This document shows, piece after piece, positions 28,546-55,191 of a stretch of DNA of 64,000 nucleotides; positions within the stretch are counted from its first letter, which is position 1; every line of letters begins with the position of its first letter. The position numbers were made by a program, and so were the translations under genes. This DNA comes from Nemertoderma westbladi. Taxonomy: Eukaryota; Animalia; Xenacoelomorpha. The notes below the pieces were generated by a model, which was given only the letters and a program-made list of their open reading frames with translations, had not been told where the DNA came from and made no database searches. The stretch lies in the NCBI GenBank assembly GCA_032718475.1, contig JAUCBJ010004969.1, positions 21,856 to 85,855 on the forward strand, in the 5' to 3' direction.

Positions 28546-28697
28546 TTTCGATCGTCCTTGTTTTCTCTTGACCTTGGCGTTGGCTATCGCTTTCGATTTT
28601 GAGTGTCAGTGTCAACAGTGTCAATTTTTATCTCGGCACCCTCCGGTATGGTGTTAGTTGTTGCGTCGAACAACGGTGGCCATTCGTCCGATGGTCG

Positions 28698-31609: not shown

Positions 31610-31992
31610 AAATGCACCAATGCAATTTAAGTACTGTATGTGTAGTTGTTCTAGTCTACAAGAAATGCGCCAATGTGAAAATAGTTAAAGTAAATTAATT
31701 AGGTACAGAATCAGGTGTAAATTTGAAAAAAATAGTTACAGCAAGTGAAAAAATTAATATGAGAGGTAAATTAAGTATATGTATTTTTGTTGTTCTAATT
31801 TACAAAAAATGCACCAATGTGGAAATAGTTAAAGTAAATTAATTAGGTACAGAATTAGGTGCAAATTTGAAAAAATAGTTACAACAAGTGAAAAAATTAA
31901 TATGAGAGGTAAATTAAGTATATATATTTTTTGTTGTTCTAATTTACAAAAAATGCACCAATGTGGAAATAGTTAAAGTAAATTAATTAGGT
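31610..31992. repeat. ~145-bp tandem repeat (~2.5 copies)
   Basis: AAATGC(A/G)CCAATGTG(A/G)AAATAGTTAAAGTAAATTAATTAGG recurs near 31662, 31807 and 31951. Confidence 0.85.
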
Positions 31993-32010
31993 CAAATTAA
32001 TCAAAACTCC

Positions 32011-32600
32011 TTCCTATGGAAATCCGACCATGAGACGGCATTCGAGAGAACTAAACTCGCTCTTCTCTCTCCTCCAATCCTCACTCCCTTCGATGCGAAT
32101 CACGAAACCAAACTCAAAACCGATGCTTCCTGCAAACCCGGTCTCAGGTACGCGCTACTTCAGCACCACGATGACAACTGGAGACTGGTCGAGTGCGGAT
32201 CGCGGTTCATTTCAGAAACTGAGTCGTGTTACGCGATGGTTGAACTTGAACATCTAGCCGTCGCCTGGGCCGCACATAAATGTAGACTTTACCTCCTGGG
32301 CCTCCCCCATTTTACTGTCATTGTCGACCACCAACCATTGGTGACAATCCTGGATCGCTATACGATTGATGCCACCAATAACACACGCCTCCAGCGGCTC
32401 AAAGCAAAACTCACTCCTTATTTCTTCACAACAGTTTGGAGGAAAGGTAAGGAGCACCACATTCCTGACGCCCTATCCCGTGCACCTGTCGATGACCCAT
32501 CCCCTGACAACCTCATCGATGATGGCGAGATGGCCTACCATCTTAATGCGGTCACCATAGCAACTGTTGCTGCCATCATGGAAGACTCAGAACACTTCGC
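32011..32600 (+). pseudogene. Ty3/Gypsy RNase H fragment
   Basis: FLWKSDHETAFERTK...TDAS...GSRFISETESCYAMVELEHLAVAWA...VDHQPL...RLQRL...PDALSRAP. Confidence 0.9.
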
Positions 32601-33419
32601 CCCCCGGGGGCTAAAGGGGCAAGAAAAGGGCCGAAAAAACGGAAAGATTCTTAGCGGTGGGTAAGAAATGGACGCGGATTGGTCGCGAGTGGGCTAAATG
32701 TAGCTTATAACTGATTCCCCGTTGGAGGTTTTGCCGACGTTGACCCTATCTGGTACACTTTTTGTCGTTTCTCATTAAGCTCAGCTTATAAAACGCGAGT
32801 GTAGTTCTTATTAGTTGTTTAGCCTCGGCTCTAGCACCTTGACATCTTCTGATTAGTTGTTTGTCCCACCCTCGCGAAAACGAAGTAATAATAAATTAAC
32901 GTAATTGGAAAGGTTTAAAAAAAATTATGCATATTAAAAAAAATATTATTGAAATAAGTACATATTTTGTCATCATTTATTTGTTATTAGAAATAAATTA
33001 AAATTGCATATATCCTCCGTTTCTCAGATATCTAATTTCTTAACTTATCTATATTTGTTATATTTAATAATTCAATTATTGCATACCTTTTTTACGCTAT
33101 ACCAATGGTGTTAAATTACTCGTCGAATGCATAACAGATTAAGAAAAGTAACAGGGAATCCCCTCATGTTATTATTTATGAGGCGTCCAGCATAGTACAA
33201 CTCCCTACTCCAATACTACAGCCAATCGGATTGCAGTATTCTTTTGTACAGGCCTTGTTCAGCTTACTAATGTTGTGATGCCTTGATATGGATGCCTGGC
33301 ATAAGGGGCCCATTTTATTCAACCAATGGGGATCGAGAATTCCCGTAGTGTTGTTCCCTGCTTGTAGTATTATCTTTTAGAAACATATACTTTTTGTTGT
33401 CCCCGTTAAGTGTAAAGCC

Positions 33420-35605
33420 CCTTCCCTTCCCAAACTCGAACTCACTGCATTATCCATTGGCGCAAGACTTTTGGTGTACATTACACAGGTATTTAGTTTC
33501 CAATTCATTCCAGCCAATATCTTTTTATGGTCAGATAGTGAAATAGCTCTACACTGGACAATGAATGGTTGTGTTAATAACGTCTATGTAAAGAATCGTG
33601 TGGATGAAATTCACCAACTATGTCCTAATGCAATATTTCGCTATGTACCAACTAAGGACAATCCGGCAGACATGCTAACTAGAGGTATTACTGCTATCAA
33701 ATTATTGTCCTCTGAATTTTGGACTTGTGGGCCGGTCTGGTTGATGTGCGTTTCTGATTGGCCAATTCAAAAAATTGTTTTCAAGGAAGAAACGGTTGCT
33801 ATTGATACCACGGTTAGCTCTTTACATACGTTGGATGAAACAGGTTCTGATGTTGATGACGTCATCAACATATCAGATTATAGTGACTATAATAAACTCT
33901 TACGTGTTACTGCATTGGTATTGCGTTTTGTTCGCCGCCTAAAGGATAGTGTTACTAATAACAGTCACAAACGTGTATATCCCACAATTGCGCCGGTCGG
34001 AGGAGGGAAAGTTCTTTCTAGTCCACTTACAGTAAATGATATCGTATTAGCAGAGATATTCCTATTGCGACGCGTACAAAGCAATATATTTAGTAAAGAG
34101 AGCAATTATTTACTATCTCTTAATTATTCTAGTACTGAGAAAGGTAAAATACCTCCGTTAGTGCATCAGTTACGGTTATTCCTAGATGACGACAATATTA
34201 TACGTTCTAGAGGTCGTATTGAACATTCTAATGTTCCTTGGCAAAAGGTCGTATTGAACATTCTAATGTTCCTTGGCAAACTAAGTTCCCCGCGATACTT
34301 CCAAGCAAACATATTTTCACTGAACTGATTATATTATCCACTCATAAGTTTAATTTCCATTGCGGTCTGTCTGACACCATCGTTCAGTTACGCCAGCGTT
34401 GGTGGATTCCACAGATAAGACAGAGAGTTCGTTCTATTATTCGTCCATGTGCGACGTGTAATCGTGTTATTGGTCGACCTTATCCAGTACCGCCACCTCC
34501 ACCACTTCCTGAGTTTCGGGTTTCAGGTTCCGTTCCATTCGAAACTACTGGCTTAGACTACACTGGTCATATATTACTCAGAGATCGCACCAAAGCCTAC
34601 ATAGCTTTGTTTACTTGCACTACTGTTAGAGCTGTACGATTAGAAGTAGTGCCAGATAATTCTACTGAATCATTCTTGTTCGCATTACGACGTTTTACCG
34701 CTCGTTCTGGTTGTCCGTCTCAATTGCTAAGCGACAACCAATCCGCCTTTATTTCAGCTGATTTAGATCTAAAGACTGTACATTCTATAGCAACTGTTCA
34801 AAATTATTTATTATCACGACATATGATTTGGACTTTTATTCCAGTTGCCTCACCTTGGATGGGAGGATTCTGGGAACGGTTGATCGGTATTGCTAAGATT
34901 GTACTAAAGAAAGTGTTAGGTCGAGCTTATATTACTTATCAAGAGTTGGTTACTGTAGCCTATGAAGTTGAAGCTTACATGAATGACAGACCCCTTACTT
35001 ACGTCACTGCGGATAGGTACGAGCCCTTACCCCTGACACCTTCCCAACTCCTATATGGTCGTCGTCTAACTGGGTTACCTTTACCCCTCATCGATAAGGA
35101 TTTTAATAAAGATCCTTCTTATGGTGAGAGACGATCCCTTACTAAACGTCATCAGCGTGTTATCACACTTATTTCTGATTGCTGGTCACATTGGAACCAT
35201 GAGTATTTAACTTCTTTACGAGAGTTCCATCGATGGAATTCTTCTGAACCCAAACATATCCCAAAAGTAGGAGATATCGTCCTAGTTGGTTCCCGTAGAC
35301 CCCGCATGCAATGGCCTCTCGGCAAGGTCATTGAACTCTTTCCTAGTAAAGACGGATGGATACGTTCTGTATCCGTAAAGACCCAAACTAGACTCTCTAA
35401 ACGTCCTATCAAACTCTTGTACCCTCTAGAGTGTCCCGTTTCACCATTAGTGGATCTATCGGATGTCCCAATTGTCCCACCAATTCGTTCACCGCAAGTT
35501 AACACTACAAAACCCCATCGTGTAGCTGCAATACGATCCCGTGAGAAACTGAAAGAATATTACGAGGATGTTTCGAATAGCGATTCATCAGTCTCAGAGA
35601 TATAG
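33420..35605 (+). pseudogene. BEL/Pao pol 3' half (end of RNase H plus integrase), 5'-truncated and frameshifted
   Basis: LPKLEL, WSDSEIAL, DNPADMLTRG, HCGL...CATC, GLDYTG, SDNQSAF, PWMGGFWERLIG and WPLGKVIELFP; a 35-bp tandem duplication at 34211-34280 shifts the frame. Confidence 0.92.
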
Positions 35606-35824
35606 ATTTATATTTTCTATGTAAACTATTTTAGTTGATATATTGTGCTATGTTTCAAAGTTTATTAGTATATGTTTATGCAATTTGAGTTATTTTCTGT
35701 ATGTGTTATTTTCTTACAATTAGTTTTTGGGGGAATTATTGAGTTATTTACTGTATGTGTTAAATTTCTTATGATTAGTTTATTGAGGAAATATTTACTT
35801 AGTTTATTCCTTGGCTGGTGGGAA

Positions 35825-36168
35825 TGTACAAAATATTATTTCATTGTGTATTTTGTTATATAAGAAAGCTTTTGTTTTTGAATCTCGCTCTTCTTTTAAG
35901 TTATTTTTAGTATGACGTAAGTAATTATCCGATTACAGTCATTCTGATATGAAGTGGGTACCGGTTTATGTTATTATTATTCTTTTTAACTTGCTTATGA
36001 CTACGTTGATTTCTGCTGTGTATGTCTGCCATGGTATCAGTAAATAGGCCTAAACATGTATGTATGCTATACCCTTAATTGAATAAATGAATCAGGAAGT
36101 ATCTTTACTTAACCCCTTATTATAAATCGCTCTCCCAAATGCTATCAAACACATACGCGGTAACAACA
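35825..36168 (+). mobile_element. Probable 3' LTR of the BEL/Pao element
   Basis: PPT-like GGCTGGTGGGAA directly before TGT (35825); AATAAA near 36083; ends ...AACAACA. The right boundary is tentative. Confidence 0.55.
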
Positions 36169-36214
36169 AACCATCGCGTTTATTTTAAGTCTGGAAATCG
36201 CAACTCCCCTATGT

Positions 36215-36813
36215 TATTTTGGGACAGCAACTGCTCTATCAGACATCTGAAACCTATCTGCCACAATTGCCATAGTGGGAAATTTACATCGTTGTTGTTT
36301 TGGTTTAACCACTACAAACGGATTATCGGAATCTTCTTAGTCTGTGTCCGCTGCAACAGAGTAATCTACACTACTATCTAATTATACTACCTGTGAAGTA
36401 CTTGGTGCTTCTATTGATCTCTTATCAACATAGTATTTTTCTAAATTTAACTTATGTTTTTCTCTTTTTCTAATAATATGACTTTCAGCAGAATCAACAG
36501 ACCCGATGTACATTTTGCGATCTGCCCTCTGATCCATTAGAAATTGGTCTTCCTTCTTTGGTATTTTGCGTGAGATTTCACATTTACAGGAAGATTCCGG
36601 ATTCAAACATTTACAAGAGGAAATATCGAAGATTAGAAGTGATTCAGTTTGAAAATGTTCCAGTTTTGATTTGTATGATGGTTTATCTTTCCGTTCTTTA
36701 TATGGCTTTAATAAGTTTCGGTATTTCAGAACATAATCCTTCAGTAACTGAACAACACGATCAACAGAAACAGTTGGCAGAGAGGCAGTTCTCCAGATGT
36801 TAATAACCTCCAA
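36215..36813 (-). pseudogene. N-terminal fragment of a DNA transposase (probably hATm-like)
   Basis: IWRTASLPTVS...YRNLLKPYK...IFDISSCKC...KIPKKEDQFLMDQRADRKMYIGSVD, and downstream PTMAIVADRFQMSDRAVA. Confidence 0.6.
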
Positions 36814-36827
36814 TGAAACAAATTTTG

Positions 36828-37169
36828 CTAATCAAATTGTTTCCCATACATTTCAAGTTCATCATTTATAGTTTCAATTATACCCTCTATGCTTGTGAAT
36901 AATCCAGGTTTAAAAGGAATTTCTATCTCATTTTTAAATGTTTCGATCTCCGAATCATAATGATACTTTCCTACCCATATGCTACTTTGATTTACTATAT
37001 TCATATATGTAGCTTGGAATTGGATTTCTTTTAATCCAGCTACCCATATTTTTCCAGGGTTTGGAAGTGGAATGGGTTGAGCCAATTCAATAGAAAACTC
37101 ACTCGGATTATTTGCTGGAAATAAGTCCATAGATGCATTTGAATATAAAGTTATATGTTTACTTGCCAT
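36828..37169 (-). pseudogene. Maverick/Polinton minor capsid (penton-like) protein, N-terminal part
   Basis: HITLYSNASMDLFPANNPSEFSIELAQPIPL...WVAGLKEIQF matches the Polinton minor-capsid N-terminus; overlaps the integrase stop; truncated near 36828. Confidence 0.75.
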
Positions 37170-37446
37170 CTCGATCAATTGTATCTATCCACACTCCTCT
37201 TTTGTAGCCTTTAAATTTAACCAAGTACTCCAGTTTAGAACCTTTCTGTCTTTGCTTGATAACTTTTTCAATAGGTAATACATTATTGTCTTGCAATACT
37301 AATTGCAATTCTTGTTCATAGAAAGTTCCTCGGATTGTTTCTCCCTTATAATCCTCTACCTCGTACATAATATATGGTTCTCTATCCATACGCATCTTAG
37401 AAATTTTGAAAATTTATTTTGTCCAATTTGGAGTATACCCTTTATT
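37159..37446 (-). pseudogene. Maverick/Polinton integrase C-terminus with chromodomain-like tail
   Basis: KGYTPNWTK*IFKI...YEVEDYKGETIRGTFYEQELQ...IEKVIK...EYLVKFKGY. Confidence 0.88.
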
Positions 37447-37465
37447 GGCGATCGTATCTTTATAG

Positions 37466-38131
37466 GCGGAGTAATTCGGGTGGTGTAACACTGCGGAGTA
37501 ATTCGGGTAGTGTAACACTGCGGAGTAATTCGGGTAGTGTAACACTGCGGAGTAATTCGGGTAGTGTAACACTGCCGAGTAATTTGGGAAGTGTAACACT
37601 GCGGAGTAATTCGGGTAGTGTAACACTGCGGAGTAATTCGGGTAGTGTAACACTGCGGAGTAATTCGGGTAGTGTAACACTGCGGACTGCGGAGTAATTC
37701 GGGTAGTGTAACACTGCGGAGTAATTCGGGTAATGTAACACTGCGGAGTAATTCGGGTAGTGTAACACTGCGGAGTAATTGGGGTAGTGTAACTCTGTGG
37801 AGTAATTCGGGTAGTGTAACTCTGCGGCGTAATTCGGGTAGTGTAACACTGCAGAGTAATTCGGGTAATGTAACACTGCGGAGTAATTCGGGTAGTGTAA
37901 CACTGCCGAGTAATTCGGGTAGTGTAACACTGTGGAGTAATTCGGGTAGTGTAACACTGCGGGGTAATTCGGGTAGTGTAACACTGCGGAGTAATTCGGG
38001 TAGTGTAACACTGCCGAGTAATTCGGGTAGTGTAACACTGTGGAGTAATTCGGGTAGTGTAACACTGCGGAGTAATTCGGGTAGTGTAACACTGCGGAGT
38101 AATTGGGGTAGTGTAACTCTGCGGCGTAATT
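37466..38131. repeat. 27-bp tandem array, subterminal in the insertion
   Basis: GCGGAGTAATTCGGGTAGTGTAACACT head-to-tail, about 24 copies, no spacers. Confidence 0.97.
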
Positions 38132-41021
38132 AGAAATCCAAAGACCACGTCGGAATGTTTTACGAGTTAGTAAAGTTTGTGCCATTTATTTTAGGGTTAT
38201 TAAAAACAAATACAGCGACGCAGTTATACAGTGCCGGGTTAATTAAAACCTCGGGGGTCCAATTGTTTATTACAACGCTTTTGGTGGATGTAAGCTGCTG
38301 GTACCATCCGGTGTACTATAAAACACCCGATTTCGGAACGTCAAGCATCCACCAAACGCGACACACGCACATCATAAAATGTGTTCCTATGAGGCGCAAA
38401 TAGAATTAATAAACATAAAACTTTTATCAGCCGTTTCTCATCATTTGTTTGTGTCAACAATTTGAGATAAAAATGTATTTTTAAACTGCATTATATGTAT
38501 AGGCTAATTCGTGTGAAAAAGCTAGACAACCGACATCCATATAGGGAGAACCATTATTAAAACTCTAATTCAAGCTAATCCTTATATATTGAGGGAAAGG
38601 AACAGGTTACATTACTGTGGACTGATTCCAACCAAATCAAGCAGGTTACAGTTTCATATTTGTCGCTGTCGGTTGTGGCCGTCGGTGTAGCGATTACACT
38701 CGGCTAATTTATAAATCCTACACTAACAAACCAACAAACATAATGAATTAGCTGTTGTTTGGATATTTATAATCACTATAGGCCTACACGATAAAGCTCC
38801 ATTATGTTTTCAAACCGGTACCGGTATGCCAGATGTTCGTTTTTCCAAATATCTTTTGTAAAATTAAACTTTGCGCAAAATTCTGCACGGTTAGTCAAAA
38901 GGTTTCAATTATGTGGAGAGGAAGACACGTTTTGTTATTCTAAATGGAGGCAGGTGGAACTACTGTATTATTGTATGACTCCAGTCTGTGTGTGTTAGGT
39001 TGCACCAATTGTTATACTGTGTTATTTTACGGACCAAGTTAGTTCTGAACAACACATAGCTCTTGTGTGACATCAATAATTCCAAATTCAACTTGGAAAA
39101 ATGCATAATTTTTTCTACACAACACATCTCCTTAAAAAAATAAACAATCCGACAATGTTTAAACTACAGATAACAGATACGGATTGTGTGATAAATATTG
39201 TTCTGAACTAACAGTGGGCCCTAAGCTATGGAGTATTGAGTTTAGGGGTTTAATTAATGCAATATTTACGATTTTTCGGTTCGATTCCAGCCAAAGAGGG
39301 TTATAAAATCACCAGAGATTACATTGTTATCTTCTTTTTTGTTTACAAAGTTCGTGTAATAGAAATTGCACATTATACTACTACTTCAACTACCATACAC
39401 ACTGTGGTACAATAATACAGTAGGTTGTGGTGGAACAAATCAAAGTGGTTGGTTTGTTTAGCCAATAATAAAGTCGGTTTGAGGACTTTAATGTGCGAAC
39501 TCAAAATCGCTATTATGATTTTATTGTACGTGATACTCATTACTTAATTAAACATACAGTCCCCCCACTTCCAACTTGTATCTATAATATTTTACTTTAA
39601 TAACCCCAATTTGTATCGGAAGGAAATACAAGACATCGCCAATCGAATTGTAAAAATATTTTTTTTCACGGAGTAGTGAAGAGACTATCGTATTGAAAAA
39701 TATATAGTCAGCCATAAGCAACTTACTGTCACTAAGTCAATAGAATAGGTTACAATTTAATGTATTTACGTCGATTTTCTCCTGAAGAGGTATGTCTATA
39801 CTGTAGTCCCCCCTGTACACTGTCCCCCCTTTCCCCACTGTACAGATATATGCAACTATATAAATGTTAATTTTACAATCAAATATCTGCTACAAATAAT
39901 TCCATGTACAATTGACAACTGATTCTGTGAGAGTGAAAATGAAACGTTATCGAACCGAATTCATTTTGAAACTATGTAAATCAGCAGATGCGAATAAGGA
40001 CTAGGAATAAGGAACAGCATAACGAATTATGTTATATGAATAAGGACTAGAGCATAACGAACGAATTATGTTATATGAATAAGAATATGTCCGTTTCCGG
40101 GCCGGAAACTGGCATTCTTTGTTTTGGTTTACGAGGCGTCAATATGTCTACGTGAATGCGAACTATATGGTTGTAGTCTCTATGTGATTGTTAATACCTG
40201 GTTCGACCCCCCGAAATACCCATTGAAGCGTGTAATTTCTATTTTGTGAAATATTTTTATTTAGCTAAGGATTTATAACCCTAACAGCGAATTTACTGCC
40301 GTTGCAAAAATAAAATCAGGTGTCTACGTGAATAATTCACCGTTACAAAGGATAATGCAGTGCTATTTTTTCTCAGATGGAGATTAGAGGGTTGTAATTA
40401 GTTCTAAGTAGATTGATTGTGCGGTACCATATTGTACGGTGCCTATAAGAGCCTTAAATATGCTTACTATAGCAGACTGCATAACCTAGAGTGATCAGAT
40501 AATGTAATGTTCTATTAATGAATTCCCTCTCCCCAGACCATTAACTGTATAATAACTAGCCTATCATATTGGCACTAAAATAAACCCTAAATTGTTTTCG
40601 AACACAAGTGGCTGGAATGGCGGCGTCACATGGAATACATAATCGGTGGAGAATCGCGAATTTTGTTAGATTATTTTCGCATTTCGAACTTAATATACAT
40701 TACATTCCCGGTAGGCCACTATAACAAACATTTTCAGACTATTGTTACTGAAGTCCCGGTTGGATAACGTAATCGTAGTGAAAAAAAATATAACTTGCGA
40801 GAATGAAAAAAAAATGACTTAATTTGATTTTGCGGGACTTTACGACTTATTACTTATGATATTACTGATGTAATAAATCGAAACGCTCCGCATAATTAAA
40901 TTATGGCATTTTTTCATTCGTGCAATAGTTATAATAATTTTACAAAGACTAGTGTTCTTTCGCTACAATTTATTACTTTCAGACGAATTTTCCCAAATAT
41001 TCAGTAAACAATTATTTTCAG

Positions 41022-43044
41022 GCGAATGTTCCCAACAATTCGCTATACAATTACCGGAATGGATTCCGACGCGAACTACATACTTCTAATGGATTTGGCG
41101 CCAATAGACGACTGTCGATACAAATTCCATAACAGCCGCTGGGTGGTGTCAGGAAAAGCAGAGCCAAGACTCCCTGGACGGTGAGCAACAACTAGATTTA
41201 AGGGAAAGCCATAGGGATGGCGGGGGGTCATCAGACGGATGAATATAGACCATATACTGTACGTATTTAATAAAATACGCTGGTGATCCGATGTCCTTCT
41301 CGTTAACCCTATTAAACCCGGGGGGGGGTCAATATGACCCCCCCCGTGGTTTTTTTATTATAATTCTGAAACAAACGCAGTTGGGAATCTGAAACTTTAT
41401 GACTTTTCCTAAAAATCTATTGTCTTCCTAGTAGTGAAAACCGTTTTCAAAAATATTAGGTACTTTTCGAGTTATAGCACCATTTTTTAACCCTACTTTT
41501 GGCACTTTTTTTGAGACGTTTTTTGAAAATTACATTTCATTAAATATGAATTGTAACATCTCTATTTTTGATTTACACCGGTTTTTTGGTGTTAGAAATT
41601 GGATGGAATTCATATAAATTGATTTAGAAATTTCAAACTTGTTTTTTTCGGTGGGTGCCAAATTTTGGTGCCAGCACCAAATTTTGAAATATGTCAATTT
41701 TGTAAATTGATTGTTTGAAACTTGTTTTTTACGCAATTGGGGTTTTTTGCGGTTCTGGATTCGATGAAATATACACGAGTTGCACCAAGCGTATCAAACT
41801 TGTATTTTTCGGTGCTGTGTGCAAATTTTGGTGCTAGCACGAAATTTTGAAAATCCATTCAATAGATAAAATTGCTTGTGACAATTTATTTCTTGCGTTT
41901 TAGAGGTTTATGGCTGTTCTGAATTCAATGGAATATATAATTATCGAACTAAACATCTCAAACTTGTATTTTTCGGATGTGGGTGCAAAATGTGGTGCTA
42001 GCACCAAATTTTGAAAACCATCAAATATATCAATTGATTGTGTCACCTTGTTTCTTGCGTTATACGGGTTTGTGATGGTTCTGAATTTAATGGAATCAGT
42101 AAAAATTTCATAAGAGTCCTCAAACTTGTATTTTTCGCCGGTGGGTGAAAATTGTTGTGCCAGCACCAAATTTTGGAAAATATGCAAATTGATCAGTAGA
42201 TAGTATCACCTTGTTTCTTGCGTTATACGGGTTTATGAGGGTCCTGAATCCGATGGAATCAATAAAAACAGCACTGGACATCGCAAAATTGTACTTTTTG
42301 GTGATGGGTACGAAATTTGGTGCTAGCACCAAAATTTGCCAAATTACGCCGAAAAATACAAGTAGCAATGATCTGGCATATTAGAAATGTATTCCATTAG
42401 AATCAGCGCCCACGAAAACCTGAAAATGTGAATTTATAGCATCGTATAAGTGAATTAAAAATTTTGTGTTCTAACTGAAAAGTGCTGGTTACTTGTTTTT
42501 TTCATTTTTTTCCTACGCAGAGAGGACTAAACAGCCATTTATAGTAATCATATCATTTTTAAATATTTTCCAATGTATTTTGCACCCCAGAAAACCTGTA
42601 TTGAAAAATAATTAGCCGAAAATGTAACTTTCAAATTTTGTGAAAATTGTGCACTACTTGTAATTTTGGTGCAGCAATATAACCACCCCAGTACATTTTT
42701 TCGAAAATTTTTTTTTTCGGTCGGATCCAGACAAGTGATACCTACGTACAAACAAAAAATCAGACGTTTTCGTAAATATTTGTAGATTTTAGAGGGAGGG
42801 GTCAATATGACCCCCTCCCGGTATTTGTACAACATTTTATAGCCCGGTACTAATAGGGTTAAGCAGTGATATTGGTGTCACTTGTGATGTATGGCATGCG
42901 GAATGTATTTAATTAATTAATCTCTATTTATTTTGCTTTACAGATTGTATATCCACCCAGATTCTCCAGCTAATGGGGAGACATGGATGAGCCAACCAGT
43001 TACATTTCACCGTCTGAAACTCACAAACAACAATCTCGATCGCC
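41022..43044 (+). pseudogene. T-box transcription factor gene fragment, two exons (41022-41180 and 42944-43044), Tbx6- or Tbx2/3-like
   Basis: Exon A: [52 protein letters not shown]. Exon B: [34 protein letters not shown]. Canonical AG/GT sites, in phase, at conserved T-box intron positions; flanking exons not found. Confidence 0.9.
41307..42858. mobile_element. Non-autonomous piggyBac-type element inside the T-box intron
   Basis: TTAA|CCCTATTA...TAATAGGG|TTAA; subterminal GGGGTCAATATGACCCC palindromes at both ends; internal diverged tandem repeats. Confidence 0.88.
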
Positions 43045-43828
43045 TTATTACCTTTTTTGCAATATTCAACCGTACCATATCATTTACTTTAAACTTAGGT
43101 TTCCGAGGTTTTTTGATCAAACCAACATAGAGCTTTTTAAAAAGAGCGGTTTCATTCATTTTGTTAACCTGATTTGGAGCCATACCTATTGTCCGATGTT
43201 TGGAATTATTATATGCAGTCACAAGGCTGGGTAATATTGTAACCCATGCTGAATTTTTCCTACGAATAAAGACTTTAAACATACGTGATTTTAATGTTCG
43301 ATTAAAACGTTCGCATATTGAGGCCTTAAATTGTGATTTCATAGTATAAAACAATACATTTTTTTGTTTAAGGTAATTGCTTACCTTTTTGTTTACAAAC
43401 TCTGAACCCATGTCACATGCAATCTTTTTTGGTATCCCACTTTCGAAAATTTTTTCTAAGACAACTATCATTTCCTTTCCAGTTTTTTGTTTCATTGGTA
43501 AAGCAAAACCTACCCTGCTAAAACAATCTATAGCAGTAATAATATAATTATAGCCTTGGTTCTCCTTCCTATATTTCTGCATATCAACAAGGTCCATCAT
43601 ATACAGATCCTGAATTCCTCCAGTAAAAATTTTAGAGGTAGGAAATTTTCTCCTCGCTTGTACGTGTAGCGTGTATGTCTCCTGAGTTTTCAGCCAATCC
43701 TTTGCTATCTTTAAGGGAACCTTTCCGGCCTTTGCAAGTTTCACGGCACTTGCGAAACCACCAGGGTGCGCAACATCGTAGTATATTCTTGACAGCTTTT
43801 GCGCGATCAGTTTCATCTTGGGAGCCAT
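43045..43828 (-). pseudogene. Maverick/Polinton retroviral-like integrase, N-terminal and catalytic part
   Basis: IYYDVAHPGGF, WLKTQETYTLH, MDLVDM, IDCFSR, CDMGSEF, ERFNRTLK, YNNSKHRTIGMAP and [10 protein letters not shown]. Confidence 0.93.
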
Positions 43829-43881
43829 CCCCTTCCATACAAACACAATTACAATTGATGTCAATATCAATATGCTTCAAC

Positions 43882-43915
<34 letters not shown>

Positions 43916-44388
43916 TATATTGTATCAAATGTTTATATATATTTCCGGAATTTGAACCGAATTAGCTGTGGATTGAGTGATTTTTCCTTCTTATTTTGGC
44001 TTTTATTTTGTATAGATTTAAATCTCTTGTTTTGGGATTTCTTATAGTTCCTCTTCTTCTTTAAATTCTTAAGCGAATAGCTACTTTGCTTATATATATA
44101 AAATACTCCTGAAGACTTACTCTTGACATCAGACTGTCAGATGATGAGTAAAAAGATCAATATTGCTGATGCTGCAAAACTAGTCCTTATGAGTGACTCT
44201 GACGACGATAAATCTATTTCGAGTTGTTCAATAATTGATTGCAAACTTAGTGGTAATACAGAAAACAGATATATCCAAAAGAGGTTCTCCCTTACCAAAC
44301 TCCAATTATTCCCTCTAAGGATGATTCTTCAAGTTGTAGTTTTAGACAAGAACCTTGTATTAGAAAGCAATTATTTTGCAAATCCTCA

Positions 44389-46640
44389 TTGCCACACACC
44401 AACACCACTATCAATACAAATGAAAACGAAGTCCATATTGACCATATTATTCCCCCTGAAAGGAAATTATTGGAGTCTGAAGAGTTTCAGGACATACCTG
44501 AAGAATTTGTCGACATATTGCTGGGGGATAAACCAAGTGAAAAATCTGAAACTGAAAGTATATCTGAAATGGTGTGTGTACCTGAAGAATTGTATGATTC
44601 ATTTACAAATCAAAACTCGCCAAATAAAAGTATTGGCCCTTGCGACAAGGAATATCTTCCAGGCGATAATGGTGATAGCAGTGATAGTAGTGAATTGGAT
44701 ATAGAGAAAATAACCCCTAATACAACCACCGCCATGAGTCCAGGTGATATTATTGATCGCAATAAACAGAGGAAAAGGGCAAAAACTGCAGATCCCAGTA
44801 AATGGAAAAAAAAACAAAGAATGGCAGCACGTTCAGCAGGAAAATCATATGTTGCAAAAACGGGAAAAACCGTAACTTCAAGACATCTGCTCGATGTAGA
44901 TTGTTCACGTTGCCCATATAAATGTGAACAAAGGGTTCTGTTACAAATACGCCAGAAAATCCTTGATGAATACTATTCAATAGGAAGTTTTGCTGGAAAA
45001 TGTAACTTTCTGTTACAACGCATGAAGTCGTGTCCAAAAAAAGCTTGCAGACCACGTGTGCTTACTCCAACTAAATCGCGACCAAGAAGCATCAGCAACA
45101 GTTTTACTTTTGTAATTAATGGTGAAGAGGTTAAAGTTTGCCGAAAGTTCTTTCTAGCTACATTAGGTATGACAAATGATTCGGCATTACGCACTGCACG
45201 CCGAGGTTGTGGTGAACAAGGAAGTTTTGTGAAAAAGGATGGGCGGGGTCGATGTCCACCTAAGAACAAAACATCAGCACAAGAAGTAGAACTTGTTCGA
45301 CAGCATATTAAAAGTTTTCCAGTAATGGAGCCACACTATGTCCTCAAAAGTAGCCTAAGAACATATTTTCAACCAGGATTAAACAAAACAGCAATGTACT
45401 TATTATATAAGGAATGGGGTAAAGCTCATGGTGTCAAGTCTCCTGTTGGGAAACAAAAATATAAGGAAATTTTGAAGGAAGATTTCAATATATCGTTCTT
45501 TGTTCCTAAGAAAGATCAATGTGTTTTGTGCAACAAGGGTGATAACTTAACTGGAGAAGAATTGAAAACATATCTTACTGACGAGAAAGAACCACACCTT
45601 AAACGCCATGAGATTGCCCAAAATGAAAAAATGCAAGATAAAGAACTTGCAAAGAAGGATCCTGCCGTAATGTCAGTAACATTTGATCTACAGGCAGTAT
45701 TGTATACACCCTGTAGTAATGTTAGTGTTATGTACTATATGCGCAAATTAAATGTATTTAACCTGACGATTTATGAACAAGCATCAAGGAATGCGTTATG
45801 TTGTGTATGGCCAGAATATATTGGAAAGCGCGGTTCCAATGAAATAGGTAGTTGCCTCCTCTATTACATAAATTCTTTACCCGATTCGATAAAACACCTA
45901 ATATTATGTTCTGACACATGTGGTGGGCAGAATCGCAATCAGTTTGTCGCAGCTATTCTTTGTATGCTGTTTGCCACTCGAAATTGGATGTTATAGACCA
46001 AAAATTTCTAGAAGCCGGGCACACCCATATGGAAGTTGATTCCATGCATAGCGCTATAGAATTTGCAAAAAAGCACCAAAAAGTATATACTCCAAATGAA
46101 TGGGAGAACATAATAGTTGCAGCTCGCAGGGACAAACCTTACCAAGTTCACATGTTACAGCAGAGTGAGATCTTTAATTTAAAAGATCTATATATAAACA
46201 AATATAAACAAATAAATAATAGAAATATAAACATTAACAATGAAAAAGTTCCATGGATGAAGACAAAATGGTTTCAGTTCCGAAAAACTAATCCCGGATC
46301 ATTTTTCTACAAAGAAAACTATGGTGATAGTGATTTTAACGAAGTATTAGTCCAAGGAAATCCACCAAAACCAAGTAAACTCACAACCAGGTCATTGAAA
46401 TCCAAACCTACAAAGAGTAAGAAAATATACTCTAGCATGTCAGAAGTATCATTAATACCTGCCAATGATAGACTGATTCCAGTATCAATTAAGAAGAAAG
46501 AAGATTTGTTAGAAATTGCAAAAAATCTTGGACTCAGTCAACATTATTACGAGTTTTATGATTCCTTACCAAGCAGTGCCAATGCATCTGATTGTCTTCC
46601 AGAACCGGACCAACATGAAGAATATGAAGTAATTGTATAA
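44389..46640 (+). pseudogene. Sola-type (Sola1-like) DDD transposase, frameshifted near 45955
   Basis: KVCRKFFLATLG, HIKSFPVMEPHY, FNISFFVPKKDQC, TFDLQAVL, KRGSNEIGSCL, SDTCGGQNRN and GHTHMEVDSMHSAIE. Candidate right terminus near 47086; no left TIR found. Confidence 0.85.
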
Positions 46641-47367
46641 ACCACGATCTGATCGCATTTACAATTACTAGGCAACAACTGTAGGCCTATAGTTATTTTT
46701 TGTAATTTTTGTAATTTAAAATTATAACATTACACAACTGGATATAAAATCATACAACCCATAACGGTAAAAAATGTAGTGCATAATGTGAGTAAAAATT
46801 GCATTTTCTGACATGGGGGCTTTTTATTATTCATGCAGTCAACTAATACCTATCATTATAATGTACATGGAAAAAACGCCTAAGTCAAACTGAAAACTTT
46901 ACATATTCAGATATAACTACTTTTTTAAGGGAAAACGCATTTTATATAATGTCTGCAATAAACTTAACTATTTTTCATTATTTGGCACAAAAATGTATTA
47001 GTAAAACACAACAGCGTGAGACATTAAAATGTGATTATCTAAAATATGAATTTTTTGACTTGGGTGGTTTTTCCTTATCTCCAACGATATAATATAGAGA
47101 TTAAATTCAAAATGTTTTTTGCTTCTAAATTTCATATAATATAGAAAGTGAGATAGTATTATTCATATTCCAGTAAAATGTCTCACAAATAAATATTATA
47201 CAGTTATTACCTACAATATATGGTTATATTAATATTAATCAGTTTTTCCTATGTATATAACCTAGCATAAAATATAAATCTAATGTTTCTAACCCTAAGC
47301 TGCTAAGTAGTTTAATTAATATTATATATAGCTAATCTAATCCTAAGTAGAAACATGCTTAGGCCTA

Positions 47368-48030
47368 TTATAAAGTAAATCGAGACATTAAATGTATAAA
47401 TTTGGGTAAAGTTAACCTAAAATTGGAAGGTGATGTCATACAAGTTATCTTACCACTCGCAAATACACAAAATGTTATTGATTTATCAAAACGTACTAAT
47501 ATATTACAAAAAATTTCGGGTTCATAGAATATTTGTATATGTGTATTATTTTCTTGGTGGAAACCAACCTAATATGATAATTTGGTAAAATTTATTTCGG
47601 GTTCATAGAATATTTGTATATGTGTATTATTTTATTGGTGGAAACCAACCTGATATGATAATTTGGTAAAATTTATTTTATATTTGAATACATGGGTATG
47701 TGAATTTATACATTGTACTTCCAAATCAATTTTAGTTTTTATTTTAATATAATTCAATACCTTATTGATGTATTTGCAACGGCCTAATATTGTAACTTTT
47801 CCACTAGAAAAAAATAATACAGTACAGTCATACTTTTTGAATATAAATTGAATTGGTTTCTGATGTAGAACACCATTTAGTTGAATACTAAGTTTATTTA
47901 AATTAATTGCATGTTCTACTTTTGGTCTACAACTGATATTACTATTTACTATTGAATAATTTGGTACAGATATAGGGATCATAGATTCAAGATTTTTAAT
48001 AGTGGCTTCATCTACTTCTGAATCAGACAT
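47368..48030 (-). pseudogene. Intronless, divergent TATA-binding-protein (TBP)-like gene next to the Polinton PolB
   Basis: Two TBP-like repeats: YSIVN...INLNKL...TVLFFSSGKVTILG and ...INFTKL...FYEPEIF...FCVFASGKITC. An in-frame 81-bp duplication (47513-47674) has a different stop in each copy; the consensus gives an open 193-aa protein. Confidence 0.75.
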
Positions 48031-48037
48031 AATTAAA

Positions 48038-48754
48038 TTAGAGTAATATTGGCGGATTATACAAATGATGAATTGGTCGAGTCACTCCTGTTTTGTAATG
48101 TCCAAATGGTAGGGAAGTATTACCATCACACCACCAACGTTTATCATCAAACAAACTTAATGTTCGCTTCGTTTCTCTAAGGATGTATAATTGATGGAGC
48201 TTTGATCCTATTTTACGACCTTCTTCATAGAGCTGTATGGCCTCCCTATAACAAGTTAAGTATGAGTTATGAGTTAACTTTTTATTTATTACTGCTCTTG
48301 TAATCCCCTTGGCTGTTTTTTTATCCTCACCACCCTTTAAACTATAAGCTTTTGGCTTCAATAGGATCCATTCAGTATATTCCATCCCCTTGTTTTCATC
48401 TTTAACCATATTGAGATTACCTTTATTTAAATTCGAGTAAAGAGGATGATCACTATCGTAATTTGAAGTATCTAATAACTTGCGATCTTTCATTGTCTTT
48501 AAAAAAATATTAAGAGAAATTCCCTTAATAATTATGAAGAATGAATCTGTATCACCTCCTGCTAGCTATAATGTACAGTTTAGTTCTTTTTCTAATGGTT
48601 TTAGCTTGTCATACAATAATGAATACATACGTAGTTTCGATAATGATAGTACAGCTTCTCCAATATATATTGGTTTATTTAAAGTAATCTTTGTTTTAGA
48701 TAAGGTATGCCCACTTAGAGAGTCTGTATATATATCAAAGTGCTTTGATAAAAG
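48038..48754 (-). pseudogene. Maverick/Polinton protein-primed DNA polymerase B, C-terminal fragment
   Basis: LNKPIYIG...LSKLRMY...GDTDSFF...DTSNYDSDHPLYS...KDE...KTAKGI...DDKRW...LPFGHY; one in-frame stop at 48566-48568. Confidence 0.9.
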
Positions 48755-50451
48755 TTGAAGGACACTTTCACATTTAAAAAGTGGCTTGGCCGTTATGGGC
48801 CACAGTACAATTTCCTCTACTAAATATTTCTAAATGTTGCGCCCCCCTGAAGTGGCGGCCGCCCCCTCCTGCCCCACACCCTAGCGGCGCCTCTGAATGT
48901 GAGTCAATGAAGCAATGAAGGTAGAATGTACAATTTGCTTACACACACATGGACCGAGGTTGTGATTCGAAAGAATCAGACATTACCAGTGAGCCTTTCT
49001 CCTGTGGGTTCTGCTCTGCCAAACTCATTAATTTCAGTTGCTCCCGGAATCCCACACAAGTAAGTCTGATGTTTCCTGCACGGAAATTGAAAGATTCCCA
49101 AGAAAGAAACTTGAGGTTTATTATACGTAGCCCCTACCTACATAAATATGAGCTTCGTAATATTGTGCCAATCTTCTGCACCTTATTTTATTCTATGAGA
49201 TATACAGTATATAATATGCCCAGTATCAATATACATTATACTATGTGTATGTGTCCTGAATTTGTATTCATTCTATGTGACGATCTAATTTAGTTTACTA
49301 GTTTATTTACTTTATTAATCTGTTATTTTCCAAGGTATTTTAGTATTATTTTTTTTTCATTTTTATTTTTTATACATTTTCCGTATCTCCTTTTAACTTT
49401 ACCTAATGGGACAACTGATTACCAGCAGAAATGATAATGTAACATGTGATATTGTGTTTTGGTTAGAATAACATGTCACTGTAACCTGTTCCTTTCCATA
49501 AATTAATATGTGAACCATAACATTTGTTCGAAACAATGTTGACGACCGACAGTCTATTGCACCTGGATCACCAGCTGTAAACAACATCCTCCACTACGAA
49601 TCCTGTAAAGAAGTTCCAGAGTTATTTACAAAGTTACGAACTGCCATATTTCTTTCAAAAATAACAAATCACTAAAAACACCCAATCTTATTCATAATAA
49701 TTTCATAATATTATTAGTTATCATATATAATTAATTTTATTTACTAAATTTTAATCTGGTGCTTATACTTTAATAATTGTAACTCAAACTGGATAATGTA
49801 TCGAATAAAAGCCCATACATTCATACATTAATATGTAACGCTTTCGGAAATCAGTTAGATTTGTCAGTTAGAGATCAGTTAGAAATCAGTTAGAAGTCAA
49901 CTATTTATTTTTAAAACCCAACGACTAAGCATTAACTTCGCAGTGAAAGTATATTTAAAAACATTTTAACAATATAAAATAGTTGAGGAATCAACTAGTT
50001 GAATAGGTCCTTCAACCGATAATTGAACCACATAATACTGTATAATCCTTTATAATTCACATACAATTTATTGATTGGTACTACCTATGTACTACACTGT
50101 ATAATGTACAGTATAACATAATATTTAAATTTGTTTCAGGTATTGTTATCTATTTCCTTTACGGTATTAGAAGAAGTCTGGAGGTGCAGACCTCTGCAGA
50201 ATATATTTTATTAAATAAACAAACCGATTGGAGTACAGCTGATGTTTCTAGACAACCAGAAATTGATGAGAATACAAGGTGAGAGATAATAGGAGATTGT
50301 ATCATATTTAACTGAAATCAATCAAAATATTACTTTAACTTAACATAGGCTTTATTTACCGATTGTCGATGAGGTAAATAAAGTATTTTACAAGACATGT
50401 AAACATAAGTATTATCATAGTAAAAAAGGTTTATCTATATAGAGAGGTTGT

Positions 50452-51525
50452 TGGGAGCTATAGGAGCCATAGGGAGCTAATGGGAGCTATGGGCAATGGG
50501 AGCTAATGGGAGCTATGGGCAATGGGAGCTATGGGAGCCAATGGGAGCTTTAGGAGCCAATGGGAGCTATAGGAGCCATAAGGAGCCATAGGGAGCTAAT
50601 GGGAGCTATAGGGAGCTATGGGCAATGGGAGCTATAGGAGCCATAAGGAGCCATAGGGAGCTAATGGGAGCTATGGGCAATGGGAGCTATGGGAGCCAAT
50701 GGGAGCTATAGGAGCCATAAGGAGCCATAGGGAGCTATAGGAGCCATAAGGAGCCATAGGGAGCTAATGGGAGCTATGGGCAATGGGAGCTAAGGGAGCC
50801 AACATTTGTAATGGGAGCAATGGGGAGACTCGTGTAATGGGAGCAATAGAGGTAATGCGAACTATAGGGAGACATTTGTAATGGGAGCAATGGGGACACT
50901 CTAGGTAATGCGATCTATAGGGAGACATTTGTAATGGGAGCAATGGGGAGACTCGGCTAATGGGAGCAATGGCTAATGGGAGCTATGGGGAGACTCGGCT
51001 AATGGGAGCAATGGGGAGACATTTGTAATGGGAGCAATGGGGAGACTCGGCTAATGGGAGCAATGGCTAATGGGAGCTATGGGGAGACTCGGCTAATGGG
51101 AGCAATGGGGAGACTCGGCTAATGGGAGCAATGGGGAGACTCGGCTAATGGGAGCAATGACCAAGGGAGCTATAGGAGCCATAAGGAGCCATAGGGAGCT
51201 AATGGGAGCTATGAGCAATGTGAGCTATGGGAGCCAATGGGAGCTATAGGAGCCATAAGGAGCTAATGAGAGCTATGGGCAATGGAGCTAATGGGAGCTA
51301 TGGGCAATGGGAGCTATAGGAGCCAATGGGAGCTATAGGAGCCATAAGGAGCCATAGGGAGCTAATGGGAGCTATAGGGAGCTAATGGGAGCTATGGGCA
51401 ATGGGAGCTATGGGAGCCAATGGGAGCTATAGGAGCCATAAGGAGCCATAGGGAGCTAATGGGAGCTATGGGCAATGGGAGCTATGGGAGCCAATGGGGG
51501 GAGCTATAGGAGCCATAGGGAGCGA
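50452..51525. repeat. G-rich minisatellite of ~10-bp subunits (ATGGGAGCTA / ATGGGAGCAA)
   Basis: About 1.07 kb of GGGAGC-centred subunits arranged in higher-order blocks. Confidence 0.95.
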
Positions 51526-52229
51526 GTGGGGGGGGGGGGGGGGCTGGTCCAAAATGGGGCAATCCCTCACTACTGATTACTAAACGTTTCAAAACTATTA
51601 ATTTTTATCCTTTGACGGAAAGTTATGTTCAATTGTCCCGTTCAACAACATTACACTGGTACACATTTGATAAAATATGTTCACAATTGTACAAATCTGG
51701 GTTTTCTGGTGGCCTATATCGTAGAAACAATAAAATAAGTATGGATAGCTAAAGTATAATTAAACAAATAAAATTCTTTATGACTCTTTTTTTTCTCCAC
51801 TCCATAGAATTATAACTCATCAGCCCCCATTAGTAACACTAATTTATCCGTTTTCACAGTGAGATCCAACTGTCACCGCTCTAGAACAACTGCGCTCGCA
51901 CCAGCGAAAACTAACGATAGAACCAGCGATAGAATATAATTTAGCCTATGAGAAAATAAATAATTTATTTTATAATTAAATAATAATTTATTATTTAAGT
52001 AAATGCTTTATAGCCATCTTGGTAATTCTTATAACTTTAAAATTATTGTAATTACTCAAATTAATTTCTACTCAATCTGCTTATTGCTTTAACCTATTTT
52101 ATTATATCATATTATAAAGGAATGTTAGTATTAATTAAAACTTACACCATGGTTCCTCCCTGAAATCTTCTGTTTCCCCCCAGTTTTCCTGGGGAAATGG
52201 GTAAAGGAAACGTTGTTCCTCCGCCGCTG

Positions 52230-52556
52230 CTATCTCTTTCTGAACATATTCCTGATACAATAATATTGATCGTACCAGTTGGAGGAGGTCCGAAGGCCTT
52301 CCACTCGCGCTTCCTCCAATGCTCGAATCTCGAGCTCTCGATCAGCCAAATCTTCCTCCCATGCCATCCCCTCTTCCTGGTCCCTCATATACCGGACGTA
52401 GGGAGTGACCGCTTCCGGCCTGCTCTCCGTGGTCTGCGTACCGACGCTTCTGGTTGTGGTTGTGTTGGTAGCGTTGGACATGGTGGTGACGGATGTAGCT
52501 GTGGTGGAGATGGGTGTTACGGAGGCGACTAGCTGGGTGCTGGTGGTGGAATCCAT
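52230..52556 (-). CDS. Small unknown ORF: Ser/Thr-rich N-terminus, SVGTQT motif, acidic helical segment
   Basis: GC-richer, coding-like sequence in AT-rich flanks, with a TATA and Inr-like pair upstream; may continue by frameshift to a GTAAG donor near 52145. Confidence 0.4.
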   Translation of the reverse strand: MDSTTSTQLVASVTPISTTATSVTTMSNATNTTTTRSVGTQTTESRPEAVTPYVRYMRDQEEGMAWEEDLADRELEIRALEEARVEGLRTSSNWYDQYYCIRNMFRKR

Positions 52557-52668
52557 GATGATGAATAGTAACTCGACAAATTGTAAACACAAAAGTTTAA
52601 AATAAAATGTGAAGTTTAAAATTAGCGTCTTGTAAAATAAATCACGTAAAATTATTCGAGCTCAAAAC

Positions 52669-52703
52669 CGATGACGAATGAAGGTCCCGTCTCGGTTTAT
52701 ATA
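52669..52703 (-). promoter_or_regulatory. Candidate TATA box plus initiator
   Basis: Minus-strand TATATAAA (52703-52696) with TCA-type Inr candidates 24 and 31 nt downstream. Confidence 0.3.
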
Positions 52704-55191
52704 GCATCAATGCAGAGGGAACAATGCAACAGATTCAACGAGAGGCGGCTTTAATTAAAGGGTTCCCAGTGATAAGTCGTTAGGAGCCAGTAGTAATTAT
52801 ATGACGGTAATAACTAGGGGATATAGCATATGAATGTTAGCCTTATTTGGGCCCTCAAGCTTATTAGCAATAGAGATATCTCGCTTGCCAGCCGGCCCTC
52901 ATGCAAATTTAGCGGCGCCAAGGCTAACGGGGCACCTCGAAGACAGTCTGGCTATAGTAGAGTAGAATCAACATACGAGTCCATAGCTAAAATACATCTG
53001 CCATGGAGCCTTCGCGTAGCACTATGCTCACCAAATATATTTATTCAGATCACCGCTATAGACATTGAGTACATATATATATATATACATACTTATTACT
53101 GGTAGTATTGTTTAATATGGATTATATAATGAATATATAATAATTATTACTGATCCGTTTTCAATTAAAATCTAGTTTATCATCAAAGTATGTAGGGAAG
53201 GGGGGGGGGGGGGGGGGTGGGGGATCTTCACTCATAATATGATGTACATCATTGTCAGTCTTCAAACAACACCAGTTTGTTTTCGTTTGTTGTGGAGGTA
53301 ATCCTTGTTAGAGCGTTGTTTCAACATGAATTATGTGACAGAGTTAAGAGACACATATCCAGCACAATCATATTCATATAGCATCTGCAATAGAATACAT
53401 GAAAAGTCAAATAACAACTCCTACTCCAATAATGGTCCAGTGTATAACATAAGGCTAAAACCTCAATTATTGTTATATCAGTTTTGAGTTAAATCTGATT
53501 CCATGAGTCGTGATCATTATATATCGATTCTCCGGTTTATTCGATTTTCGAACCCAAACAATGTAGATCCTGAGGACAGAGAATCAAGAATCCACGGTAT
53601 TACATAATTAGTAAGTGATATCTGTAAACAGTATATGTAAAAGCTTTTGTGGGATAACTGATTCGTTTGCCTTGTTGGCCAGTTCCCCCCCGGGCGCTGA
53701 ATACTCTAAAAGGGGATCTATAACTCGAATAGCGCAAGCTACCGGCTGATTGGCTGATTTGCTGTGCGAAGGAATCTGGGCTACGTTTGATTGTCCAACC
53801 AGCTTGCCCCACAGCCCTGTTTCTGTATCTGCCAATAGGATTTGAGTTGATTTTGATTTCGACCTATCACAGATCTACTGAACTGAATTTTCCTATCTGT
53901 ATGCTCTTTCTCTGTGGTGGGTGGAAGCCTTTGTAAATAAGGTTATTCTTATCAGTTTTTAGTGTTTTTGTGATTCTAAGCCAGGAAGAGAGCGGCTTTG
54001 GAATTTTATGCTCTTTCTCTGTGCCTTACACTAGTAGGCTTAATTATAAGGACATATATCCGTTATCAAATCATAACAAACTGATGACTGATTGTCACAA
54101 CTCATGCAACTCAACATACCTAATCAAATATACCTGTGCATACTTTTATATTGTTATACTGCTATTTACTGTCAGTTCTTCATAATATGGTTGATGAATT
54201 ATTATATTTGGAATAACGATAAATAACCCCGAAACCCAATATTCTTGATATACCGAAGGTAAGAGAGAAAGGTTACATATAACGATTGTGACTTATGTTA
54301 AAGTGGTTTGAAGTGAATCTAATGTTATTTGATAGACCCTACATGAGTCGGTCCGTGTTCCTTTTATATATAACTAAAATCAGTGAAGATCGGCAGATCA
54401 GTGTGCAGTATTGTGCAACATTGTGTATGAGTGAGACTGATAACGAAGCATTTCCTAAAGAATGCGCCATATATGTGAATTATAACTAAGCCATATCGTT
54501 GTGAGTAGTTTAAGTCATAACTCTGTTTGTATAGATAGAGCGCCACGTCCTAAAGTAACTGTTAATATTTCCCGAAGGTGAATAATATTGTCAGAGATTA
54601 TATAATACCGTCAGTCGAATAATACATTAGGCTTACATAGCAATAAGATTAAGCCGTCGAACCCAATCTCCCGGGTATATCCAGCGGGTGAATGATCGCG
54701 CACAGATTGGTTTCGACTAGTGTAGTGAATTAAATACTTGTCATAGGCTAAAAGTGATTTATTATCTAGAAGACATCATAATTTGGCGGGTTAAACTGCC
54801 AAAGGTCTGAAAGCGCGAACAATAACGGATATTGCTTCTTTATTGCAGTAAGCAATAAAGTTGAAAGTACCGGTCAACCGGTAAACCTGAACGGTACATC
54901 TGTAGGTCAGTAGGCCCAACTGCCAGAACCGGTACTGCTGTAGGCCCGTAGGTCCAACTGCCAGAACCGGTACTTCTGTACGTCCGTAGGCCCAACTGTC
55001 CGAACCGGTACTTACAGTACAGGTACAGCAGTATTATTCGATTTGATTATTATATGCCGGTAGGTCTTAATAATTAATCGGGGACGCCTGGTTTTTATTG
55101 GGATTTTACTTAGGCCTATTTCTGTCAGTTTTATTTATTTGTAGGTCAGTATTGAACAGAAGGCGTGTAACCCTGATCAGATTGTACAGAC

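Follow-up and report, generated by a model that had tools for sequence, protein, structure and literature searches.

A stop-interrupted TBP-like gene in a likely Polinton remnant of Nemertoderma westbladi, with an altered TATA box predicted for its relatives

The window, i.e., the whole stretch of 64,000 nucleotides of Nemertoderma westbladi DNA that was analysed, holds a real but broken gene that belongs to the TATA-binding protein (TBP) family and lies within the likely remnant of a Polinton. We read it as a TBP-fold gene that is interrupted by stop codons and likely non-functional, that is likely native to a Polinton/adintovirus lineage, and whose intact relatives are predicted to read an altered TATA box. 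To this reading as a whole we assign a probability of about 0.6.

Results

Gene structure and related copies

The TBP-like gene is located on the minus strand (47368..48030; GC content 25.5%) directly behind a polymerase-like frame. The latter ends with a stop codon at 48040-48038, followed by a spacer of 7 nt (48031..48037) and the ATG of the TBP-like frame at 48030, which is the spacing on one strand given in the preliminary description of this DNA. The TBP-like frame extends to a stop codon at 47370-47368 and comprises 220 codons. It had been described as an open reading frame; it is, however, interrupted twice, by in-frame stops at codons 133 (47632-47634) and 154 (47569-47571), and from the ATG no more than 132 aa can be read without a stop.

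Both in-frame stops sit within a tandem duplication of 81 bp (47513..47678; two units, 2.0 copies with 97% matches). Its units differ at two positions only, and each difference makes one of the stops. The reported duplication is thus present, but the 193-aa protein obtained by collapsing it is a reconstruction that leaves out the two stops and corresponds to no frame in the DNA. The motifs that had been quoted for the protein (FFSSGKVTILG and YEPEIF...VFASGKIT) are found in the translation.

We compared the region with three public runs, which stem from two samples and two studies under one species label. The runs hold the window's own allele as well as other copies. One of the latter, about 87% identical, spans the polymerase-TBP junction including the 7-nt spacer, with 63 differences over 500 nt and 98 over 748 nt. 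Another contig, similar in depth and again about 87% identical, carries a single unit of the duplication, and we infer that both represent the same copy. Given this single unit in a related copy, the duplication is likely the derived state. The possibility of an assembly artefact was rejected: contigs from two studies break off at this block, as fits a real repeat without proving one.

Since the junction recurs in a copy of about 87% identity, it is older than the insertion in the window. Over 47666-48013, a third copy shows 84% identity before it enters unlike sequence upstream of its start, so that some copies may lack the link to the polymerase. Both observations bear on the reading that the gene is a decayed retrocopy of a host TBP/TRF, or another captured host gene, which lies behind a polymerase fragment by chance. 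The third copy speaks for it, while the recurrence of the junction in a copy about 13% diverged makes a chance insertion at the window hard to argue.

With regard to the fate of the window copy, it is conceivable that the locus is still expressed. That is, the duplication would form a new intron spliced by the host, the stops would serve as a backup via nonsense-mediated decay, and the host may have kept the viral TBP. According to passages of PMC3443670, an AGGT in a duplicated exonic unit is a prerequisite for intron gain by tandem duplication. Each of our units holds such a word (two in the block), but 30-53% of 85-nt windows taken from these genes contain AGGT in any case. According to PMC2809761, in-frame stops are over-represented in new introns of length 3n, and in-frame stops are what the duplication shows: both differences between its units are stops, with a chance probability of about 0.004 (6-7% per substitution) for a coincidence noticed post hoc. 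On the other hand, among 8 codons at which the window stands alone against two concordant copies, and which are a small part of the sites listed, silent changes number 3 and the remaining 5 alter the residue (neutral expectation 21% silent), i.e., there is no clear purifying selection at these codons. Furthermore, the likely promoter context of the gene is cut off. We consider continued expression quite unlikely. Given a frame that is stopped twice and neighbours that are all cut by insertions, the window copy is most likely dead.

TBP similarity and conserved residues

Both stop-free halves of the protein exceed the Pfam gathering score of the TBP family (PF00352; 22.9 bits) with 24.7 and 30.2 bits, respectively, which is a positive outcome of the profile check proposed in the preliminary description. 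For the read-through translation with X in place of the stops, the match to PF00352 reaches 47.4 bits (E 1.7e-12). Among the PDB sequences matched at E values up to 1, 34/35 are TBPs or TBP fusions, all of them weak matches, and the best whole-protein match to a solved TBP scores 23.3 bits.

We judged the fold of the window protein from this family match together with a folded relative, P0025. The predicted structure of P0025 is a TBP saddle (pLDDT 91.5; TM about 0.8 to solved TBPs), for which a BFVD search places TBPs of giant viruses next after the solved ones (best E 8.6e-12, identity at most 19%). The words LHQKP-x-Q and TVLFFSSGK are common to P0025 and the window protein. We judge a TBP fold of the latter to be virtually certain.

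Next, we consider individual residues, using the yeast TBP numbering from Table 1 of PMC12529657, with window positions in brackets. Retained are N69 (N29), L114, F116 (F74), F190 (F174) and F207 (F190) as well as the acidic stirrup YEPEIF (E170 and E172 of the window protein). The earlier claim that three of the four intercalating Phe are kept (F74, F174, F190) is thus borne out by the alignments, with Pro59 at the position of F99. Further changes are V71 to Asn, A101 to Gln (Gln61), V122 to Thr (T80), P191 to Cys, L205 to Cys and V213 to Thr. In one alignment, N159 and V161 correspond to Ser110 and Thr112, where the duplication makes the column unsure and shifts it in others; the canonical Q-N-I/M-V word of the N159 region is found in no alignment of the window protein. 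The canonical Asn pair N69/N159 is therefore incomplete, with N29 kept.

Divergent TBP family

A search of 1.84 billion representatives returned six weak matches. The top one, P0002, was dropped as a spurious repeat protein without TBP match; another one, P0005, led to a divergent TBP family. In a metagenome scan, 14 loci were confirmed among 80 pattern matches, about 10 of them distinct after near-duplicates. An integrase 39-41% identical to that of the window is found in 7/14 of these TBP-bearing loci. Two loci (L004 and L005) hold a P-loop ATPase with weak Pox_A32 matches. In L009-L012 and L014, we take several ORFs to be protease, major capsid and penton genes based on motifs; those tested are unnamed by Pfam and NCBIfam. 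The expectation that homologues always lie just downstream of pPolB did not hold: no polymerase match was obtained in any of the 14 loci and none was seen beside the TBP (0/14), where several loci are too short to tell. Of the 14 loci, five are short and without hallmark gene.

Two further observations concern the loci themselves. In L008, a phospholipase A2-like gene (3739-4104; 48.2 bits) lies directly behind the TBP, as in adintovirus PLA2X. In L001-L005, the TBP frame starts immediately at the upstream gene's stop and no ATG lies nearby, such that non-ATG starts, stop-start coupling or splicing may be involved.

No relatives were found by a word-index search with the X read-through (nothing among 159 candidates), by scans of viral contigs with TBP, polymerase or integrase queries, or in phage and plasmid collections. 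A scan of genome contigs yielded an ordinary eukaryote-like TBP (L015) as well as L016, a Polinton-like block in a bacterial MAG (2764-3351 on the plus strand; 917-1537 and 546-875 on the minus strand). Its ATPase we label from a motif, and its TBP keeps F99. L016 may represent a second, less altered TBP capture and as such a natural control.

The relatives' TBPs are bare cores of about 165-190 aa with a kept stirrup, in which the three Phe and N69 are nearly invariant. At the F99 column, 46/54 non-cellular rows show Pro (5 gaps, 3 Ile), and at the A101 column 46/54 show Gln (5 gaps, 3 Met), as does the window in both cases. Neither residue occurs in any of the 44 cell-like rows, 8 of which are gapped at these columns; the grouping was made by motif and rank, and the 54 rows include a few duplicates. 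The window protein lacks two near-invariant residues of the family, i.e., an Arg at the V122 position (T80) and an Asn (C188; F-C-V-F vs. V-N-V-F). Its nearest relatives (P0025, P0027, P0029, P0030) come without genomic context.

Phylogenetic placement and origin

The phylogeny comprises 59 rows, namely the window, 38/54 non-cellular rows (short rows and near-duplicates left out) and 20/44 cell-like rows, and contains neither a host paralogue set nor named viral TBPs. Here, the window falls inside a 39-row non-cellular clade with support 100/99, on a very long branch (3.46). An AU test does not reject a clade of the window with eukaryotic TBPs (p=0.152). The phylogenetic check that had been proposed therefore places the gene in the Polinton-linked clade but does not reject its placement among eukaryotic TBPs.

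We also compared both halves of the protein with profiles built without the window. The N-terminal half reaches 43.9 bits with the Polinton-type profile, compared with 11.6 for the eukaryotic and 24.1 for the overall cell-like profile, and Polinton-type sequences make up all of its 8 best BLAST subjects other than itself. For the C-terminal half, cell-like profiles score 34.9 bits vs. 25.4 for the Polinton-type profile, and the best BLAST matches are archaeal TBPs. The highest identity of the window to any row of the tree is 29%, to a Polinton-type row.

The captured host gene introduced above gains from the AU result and from a C-terminal half nearer to cell-like profiles. It is countered by the low top identity, which moreover points to a Polinton-type row, by the absence of Pro-x-Gln in 44/44 cell-like rows and by the recurring junction, such that we regard it as very unlikely. 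Instead, the gene is likely native to the Polinton lineage. This membership is based on shared derived residues, the genomic setting and the recurrence of the junction rather than on the tree by itself. The earlier proposal of a TBP-like gene of a Polinton lineage is supported on the strength of the shared residues, the Polinton genes on the family's contigs and the junction, and the earlier interpretation as a whole is partly supported.

The surrounding element

The polymerase-like 3' fragment upstream of the gene (48038..48754, minus strand) carries the words GDTDS and FDDKR, which we take to mark the tail of a Polinton pPolB. Searches of Pfam, PHROGs, NCBIfam, PDB and plasmids returned no polymerase name for it, and its look-alikes in the Atlas (0.96-0.98) are mostly unnamed clusters. 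The PolB label given earlier fits the two words, with no name from these searches. A DNA pattern of the polymerase tail led to 9 viral loci, none of which matched window proteins or carried a TBP. In the public runs, we see variation at the stop of the fragment and loose contig ends near 48758.

On the other side, a DUF7869 transposase-like insertion (44102..47090, plus strand, left end approximate; DUF7869 30.4 bits, cut-off 26) separates the TBP-like gene from an integrase; multi-copy contigs end at 47090. At the boundary 47087, a contig downstream of the TBP-like gene continues in runs X1 and X3 into sequence that has no match in 36000-49000 among those listed (1435 nt in X1), and the insertion or what follows it may be polymorphic.

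The integrase is of Polinton type and split. Its 5' part (43007..43828, minus strand; rve 37.9 bits, cut-off 32.6) and the chromodomain end of its 3' part (37159..37455, minus strand; Chromo 17.5 bits, below cut-off) are separated by about 5.6 kb of insertions. A small Cys-rich ORF of 83 aa (43632..43883, minus strand) overlaps the integrase start in another frame; L005, L009 and L012 show a like arrangement. Directly behind the integrase lies a truncated minor-capsid-like gene (36828..37169, minus strand), which is presumably penton-like. Its match is weak (13 bits, E 0.002), being the top of 481 window ORFs compared with a 3-sequence profile from related loci.

Neither ATPase, protease nor major capsid was found in the window, in which 141 ORFs taken from related loci gave matches to integrase and TBP and to nothing else; this is expected for a remnant. 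No long inverted pair bounds the element within 35500-53000, hence no terminal inverted repeats were found, and the ends of the element appear to be lost. Strand and order suggest that the integrase is part of the same element as the polymerase-TBP pair; no contig among those listed joins the two.

The split integrase contains a very high-copy repeat (41303-42862; summed contig depth above 300,000, 163-bp tandem unit), and a 27-bp tandem array (37466-38131; 24.4 copies, 92% matches) is located at its break. Also within the insertions that split the integrase, an exon-like stretch coding for a T-box (41008-41184, plus strand; 64.8 bits) is seen. It points to an animal or close kin of animals as host, and the Polinton remnant may be interleaved with a host gene. 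Pieces of LINE-type reverse transcriptase and of LTR retrotransposons (Pao peptidase, integrase, RNase H) are found at 8452-10490 (plus), 26650-28605 (minus), 31987-32664 (plus) and 33381-35605 (plus), and a G-rich tandem array of GGGAGC type covers about 1 kb at 50452-51523.

Promoter box upstream of the relatives' genes

For six TBP-bearing loci of relatives, we investigated the 60-nt windows located 15-75 nt before 31 ATGs. ATAAAC is the top 6-mer found de novo. In the form ATAAAC[AG] it precedes 11/31 genes (27-66 nt upstream of the ATGs; opposite strand 0), compared with 0.7 on average and at most 3 among 500 dinucleotide shuffles, where motif and gene list were picked after looking, related loci are included and a TBP-less Polinton control is not part of the set. 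Leaving out the related locus L014 yields 8/25, and leaving out possible poly(A) signals (AATAAA) yields 8/31. Box-bearing genes comprise two ATPases as well as putative capsid and penton genes, and 0/3 of the TBP genes in the set; two sites fall in the coding ends of neighbouring genes. No enrichment in the 31 windows is observed for TAAGA (2/31, p=0.29), TATAWAWR (2/31) or AATAAA (4/31). In L016, the locus whose TBP keeps F99, the canonical TATAAAAG precedes 2/3 genes (one contig).

In the window itself, TATAAACA (43930..43937, minus strand) is located about 50 nt before the Cys-rich ORF and overlaps the canonical TATATAAA. Variant-box words number 8 in the window vs. 9.7 expected, so this site alone is no evidence. 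A sigma-70 promoter scan gave nothing above chance and is irrelevant to a eukaryote.

The sequence statistics suggest that ATAAAC[AG] could be a private late promoter in the relatives. With regard to the idea that the factor directs transcription of its own element, this upstream box in distant relatives provides indirect support at the level of sequence.

Protein and box can be related via the two repeats of TBP. According to PMC12529657, a preference for T at box position 1 is due to P191, which belongs to the C-terminal repeat, and according to PMC1935006 the second Phe pair enters at positions 7/8; a figure legend in PMC5175364 names both Phe and both steps with unclear pairing. The changes F99 to Pro and A101 to Gln would accordingly lie in the repeat responsible for reading the box at its 3' end (positions 7/8), an orientation that we derive from PMC12529657 and PMC1935006. 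TATAAAC[AG] departs from TATAWAWR at just this end, i.e., in the part that F99/A101 would face.

Under the resulting model, the gene would be made early due to its position behind the polymerase and would then switch on late genes. The Polinton TBP would read the altered TATA box and thereby recruit host RNA polymerase II for the packaging and virion genes, and its kept acidic stirrup (E170, E172) would let it use host TFIIB. After integration, insertions would have cut up the element, and the duplication with its stops would have broken the window copy.

A different function has to be weighed for the same native accessory gene: its product could act as a decoy for host TBP partners (TFIIB, TAF1, NC2, Mot1) without reading promoters. 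The loss of one intercalating Phe and of N159, with the acidic stirrup retained, is what such a decoy would show, and KSHV ORF24 requires all four Phe according to PMC12529657. By analogy, a three-Phe TBP may bind DNA only weakly. Set against this, the three Phe and N69 hardly vary across the family, the new polar residues on the DNA face are conserved, which fits altered reading better than loss, and the upstream box is strand-specific. We thus deem a decoy unlikely and a promoter-reading role in the intact relatives reasonably probable.

Discussion

The window protein shares with cellular TBP (PF00352; yeast 1YTB, human 1CDW, archaeal) the two repeats above cut-off, the residues N69, L114, F116, F190 and F207 and the acidic stirrup, and the P0025 model shares the saddle. 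It differs by Pro at F99, Gln at A101, Asn at V71 and Cys at P191, likely also by Ser at N159 and Thr at V161, and its gene is broken by a stop-bearing duplication within a mobile element.

The precedent is KSHV ORF24, the vTBP of beta/gammaherpesviruses, as described in PMC12529657. Likewise, this is a TBP fold encoded by a virus, its DNA face is more polar, and it works with a non-canonical box (TATTWAA late promoters) and host RNA polymerase II, a pairing that is predicted for Polintons. ORF24 alone, however, has all four Phe, lacks the acidic TFIIB-binding residues, carries extra N- and C-terminal domains and depends on five partner activators, whereas the Polinton TBP consists of the bare core, with three Phe and the stirrup retained. 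The window gene is thus not a member of the herpesvirus-type vTBP system, and any likeness in the way of working is at best predicted.

Among the Nucleocytoviricota, TBP-like proteins (Heterosigma akashiwo virus 01, Terrestrivirus, ASFV B263R-like) are fold matches of the P0025 model at no more than 19% identity. These viruses mostly encode their own RNA polymerase; no RNA polymerase-subunit gene was noted in the TBP-bearing loci examined.

With Polintons/Mavericks/adintoviruses, the window has in common a chromodomain-bearing rve integrase, a 3' fragment that resembles a polymerase and a penton-like gene, all located on the same strand. It differs as a remnant without terminal inverted repeats or a match to ATPase, protease or major capsid. 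In the literature, a TBP-like label occurs in the legend of Fig. 5 of PMC8502044 (2021), for a midsize linear dsDNA virus or related element with an adintovirus-like PolB. This element is known from the legend label, and its section covers non-animal datasets. The passages of that paper considered, including section 3.4, hold no residue, promoter or family analysis of the TBP, and one supplement is without a match to the term. Beyond this label, we found no TBP of a Polinton, Maverick or adintovirus in the literature covered, which includes passages of the preprint 10.1101/697771, with Repbase, preprint supplements and subscription papers outside its scope. A term search for TBP/TATA gave no match in PMC11131425 (including one supplement file), PMC11161782, 10.64898/2026.06.19.733378 and 10.64898/2026.10.13.758929.

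The farthest-reaching variant joins two of the ideas above: Polintons would carry a one-protein late switch made of a rewired TBP and a TATAAAC-type box, and the host would domesticate it here via a stop-protected new intron, with the factor still being made. We hold this combination to be highly improbable. For the preferred reading, i.e., a dead copy with intact promoter-reading relatives, the meaning lies in the biology of the family. Polintons are without RNA polymerase, which raises the question of how the expression of their capsid and packaging genes is timed. If true, one small protein would suffice for a herpesvirus-like late switch, namely a TBP whose DNA face is altered, together with a box that matches it. 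The pairing of protein and box is directly testable and would show how far TBP specificity can be rewired with three Phe. The window copy, though broken, adds to this family a far-diverged branch and a new gene position behind a polymerase-like gene, and its 81-bp duplication is a candidate for the birth of an intron.
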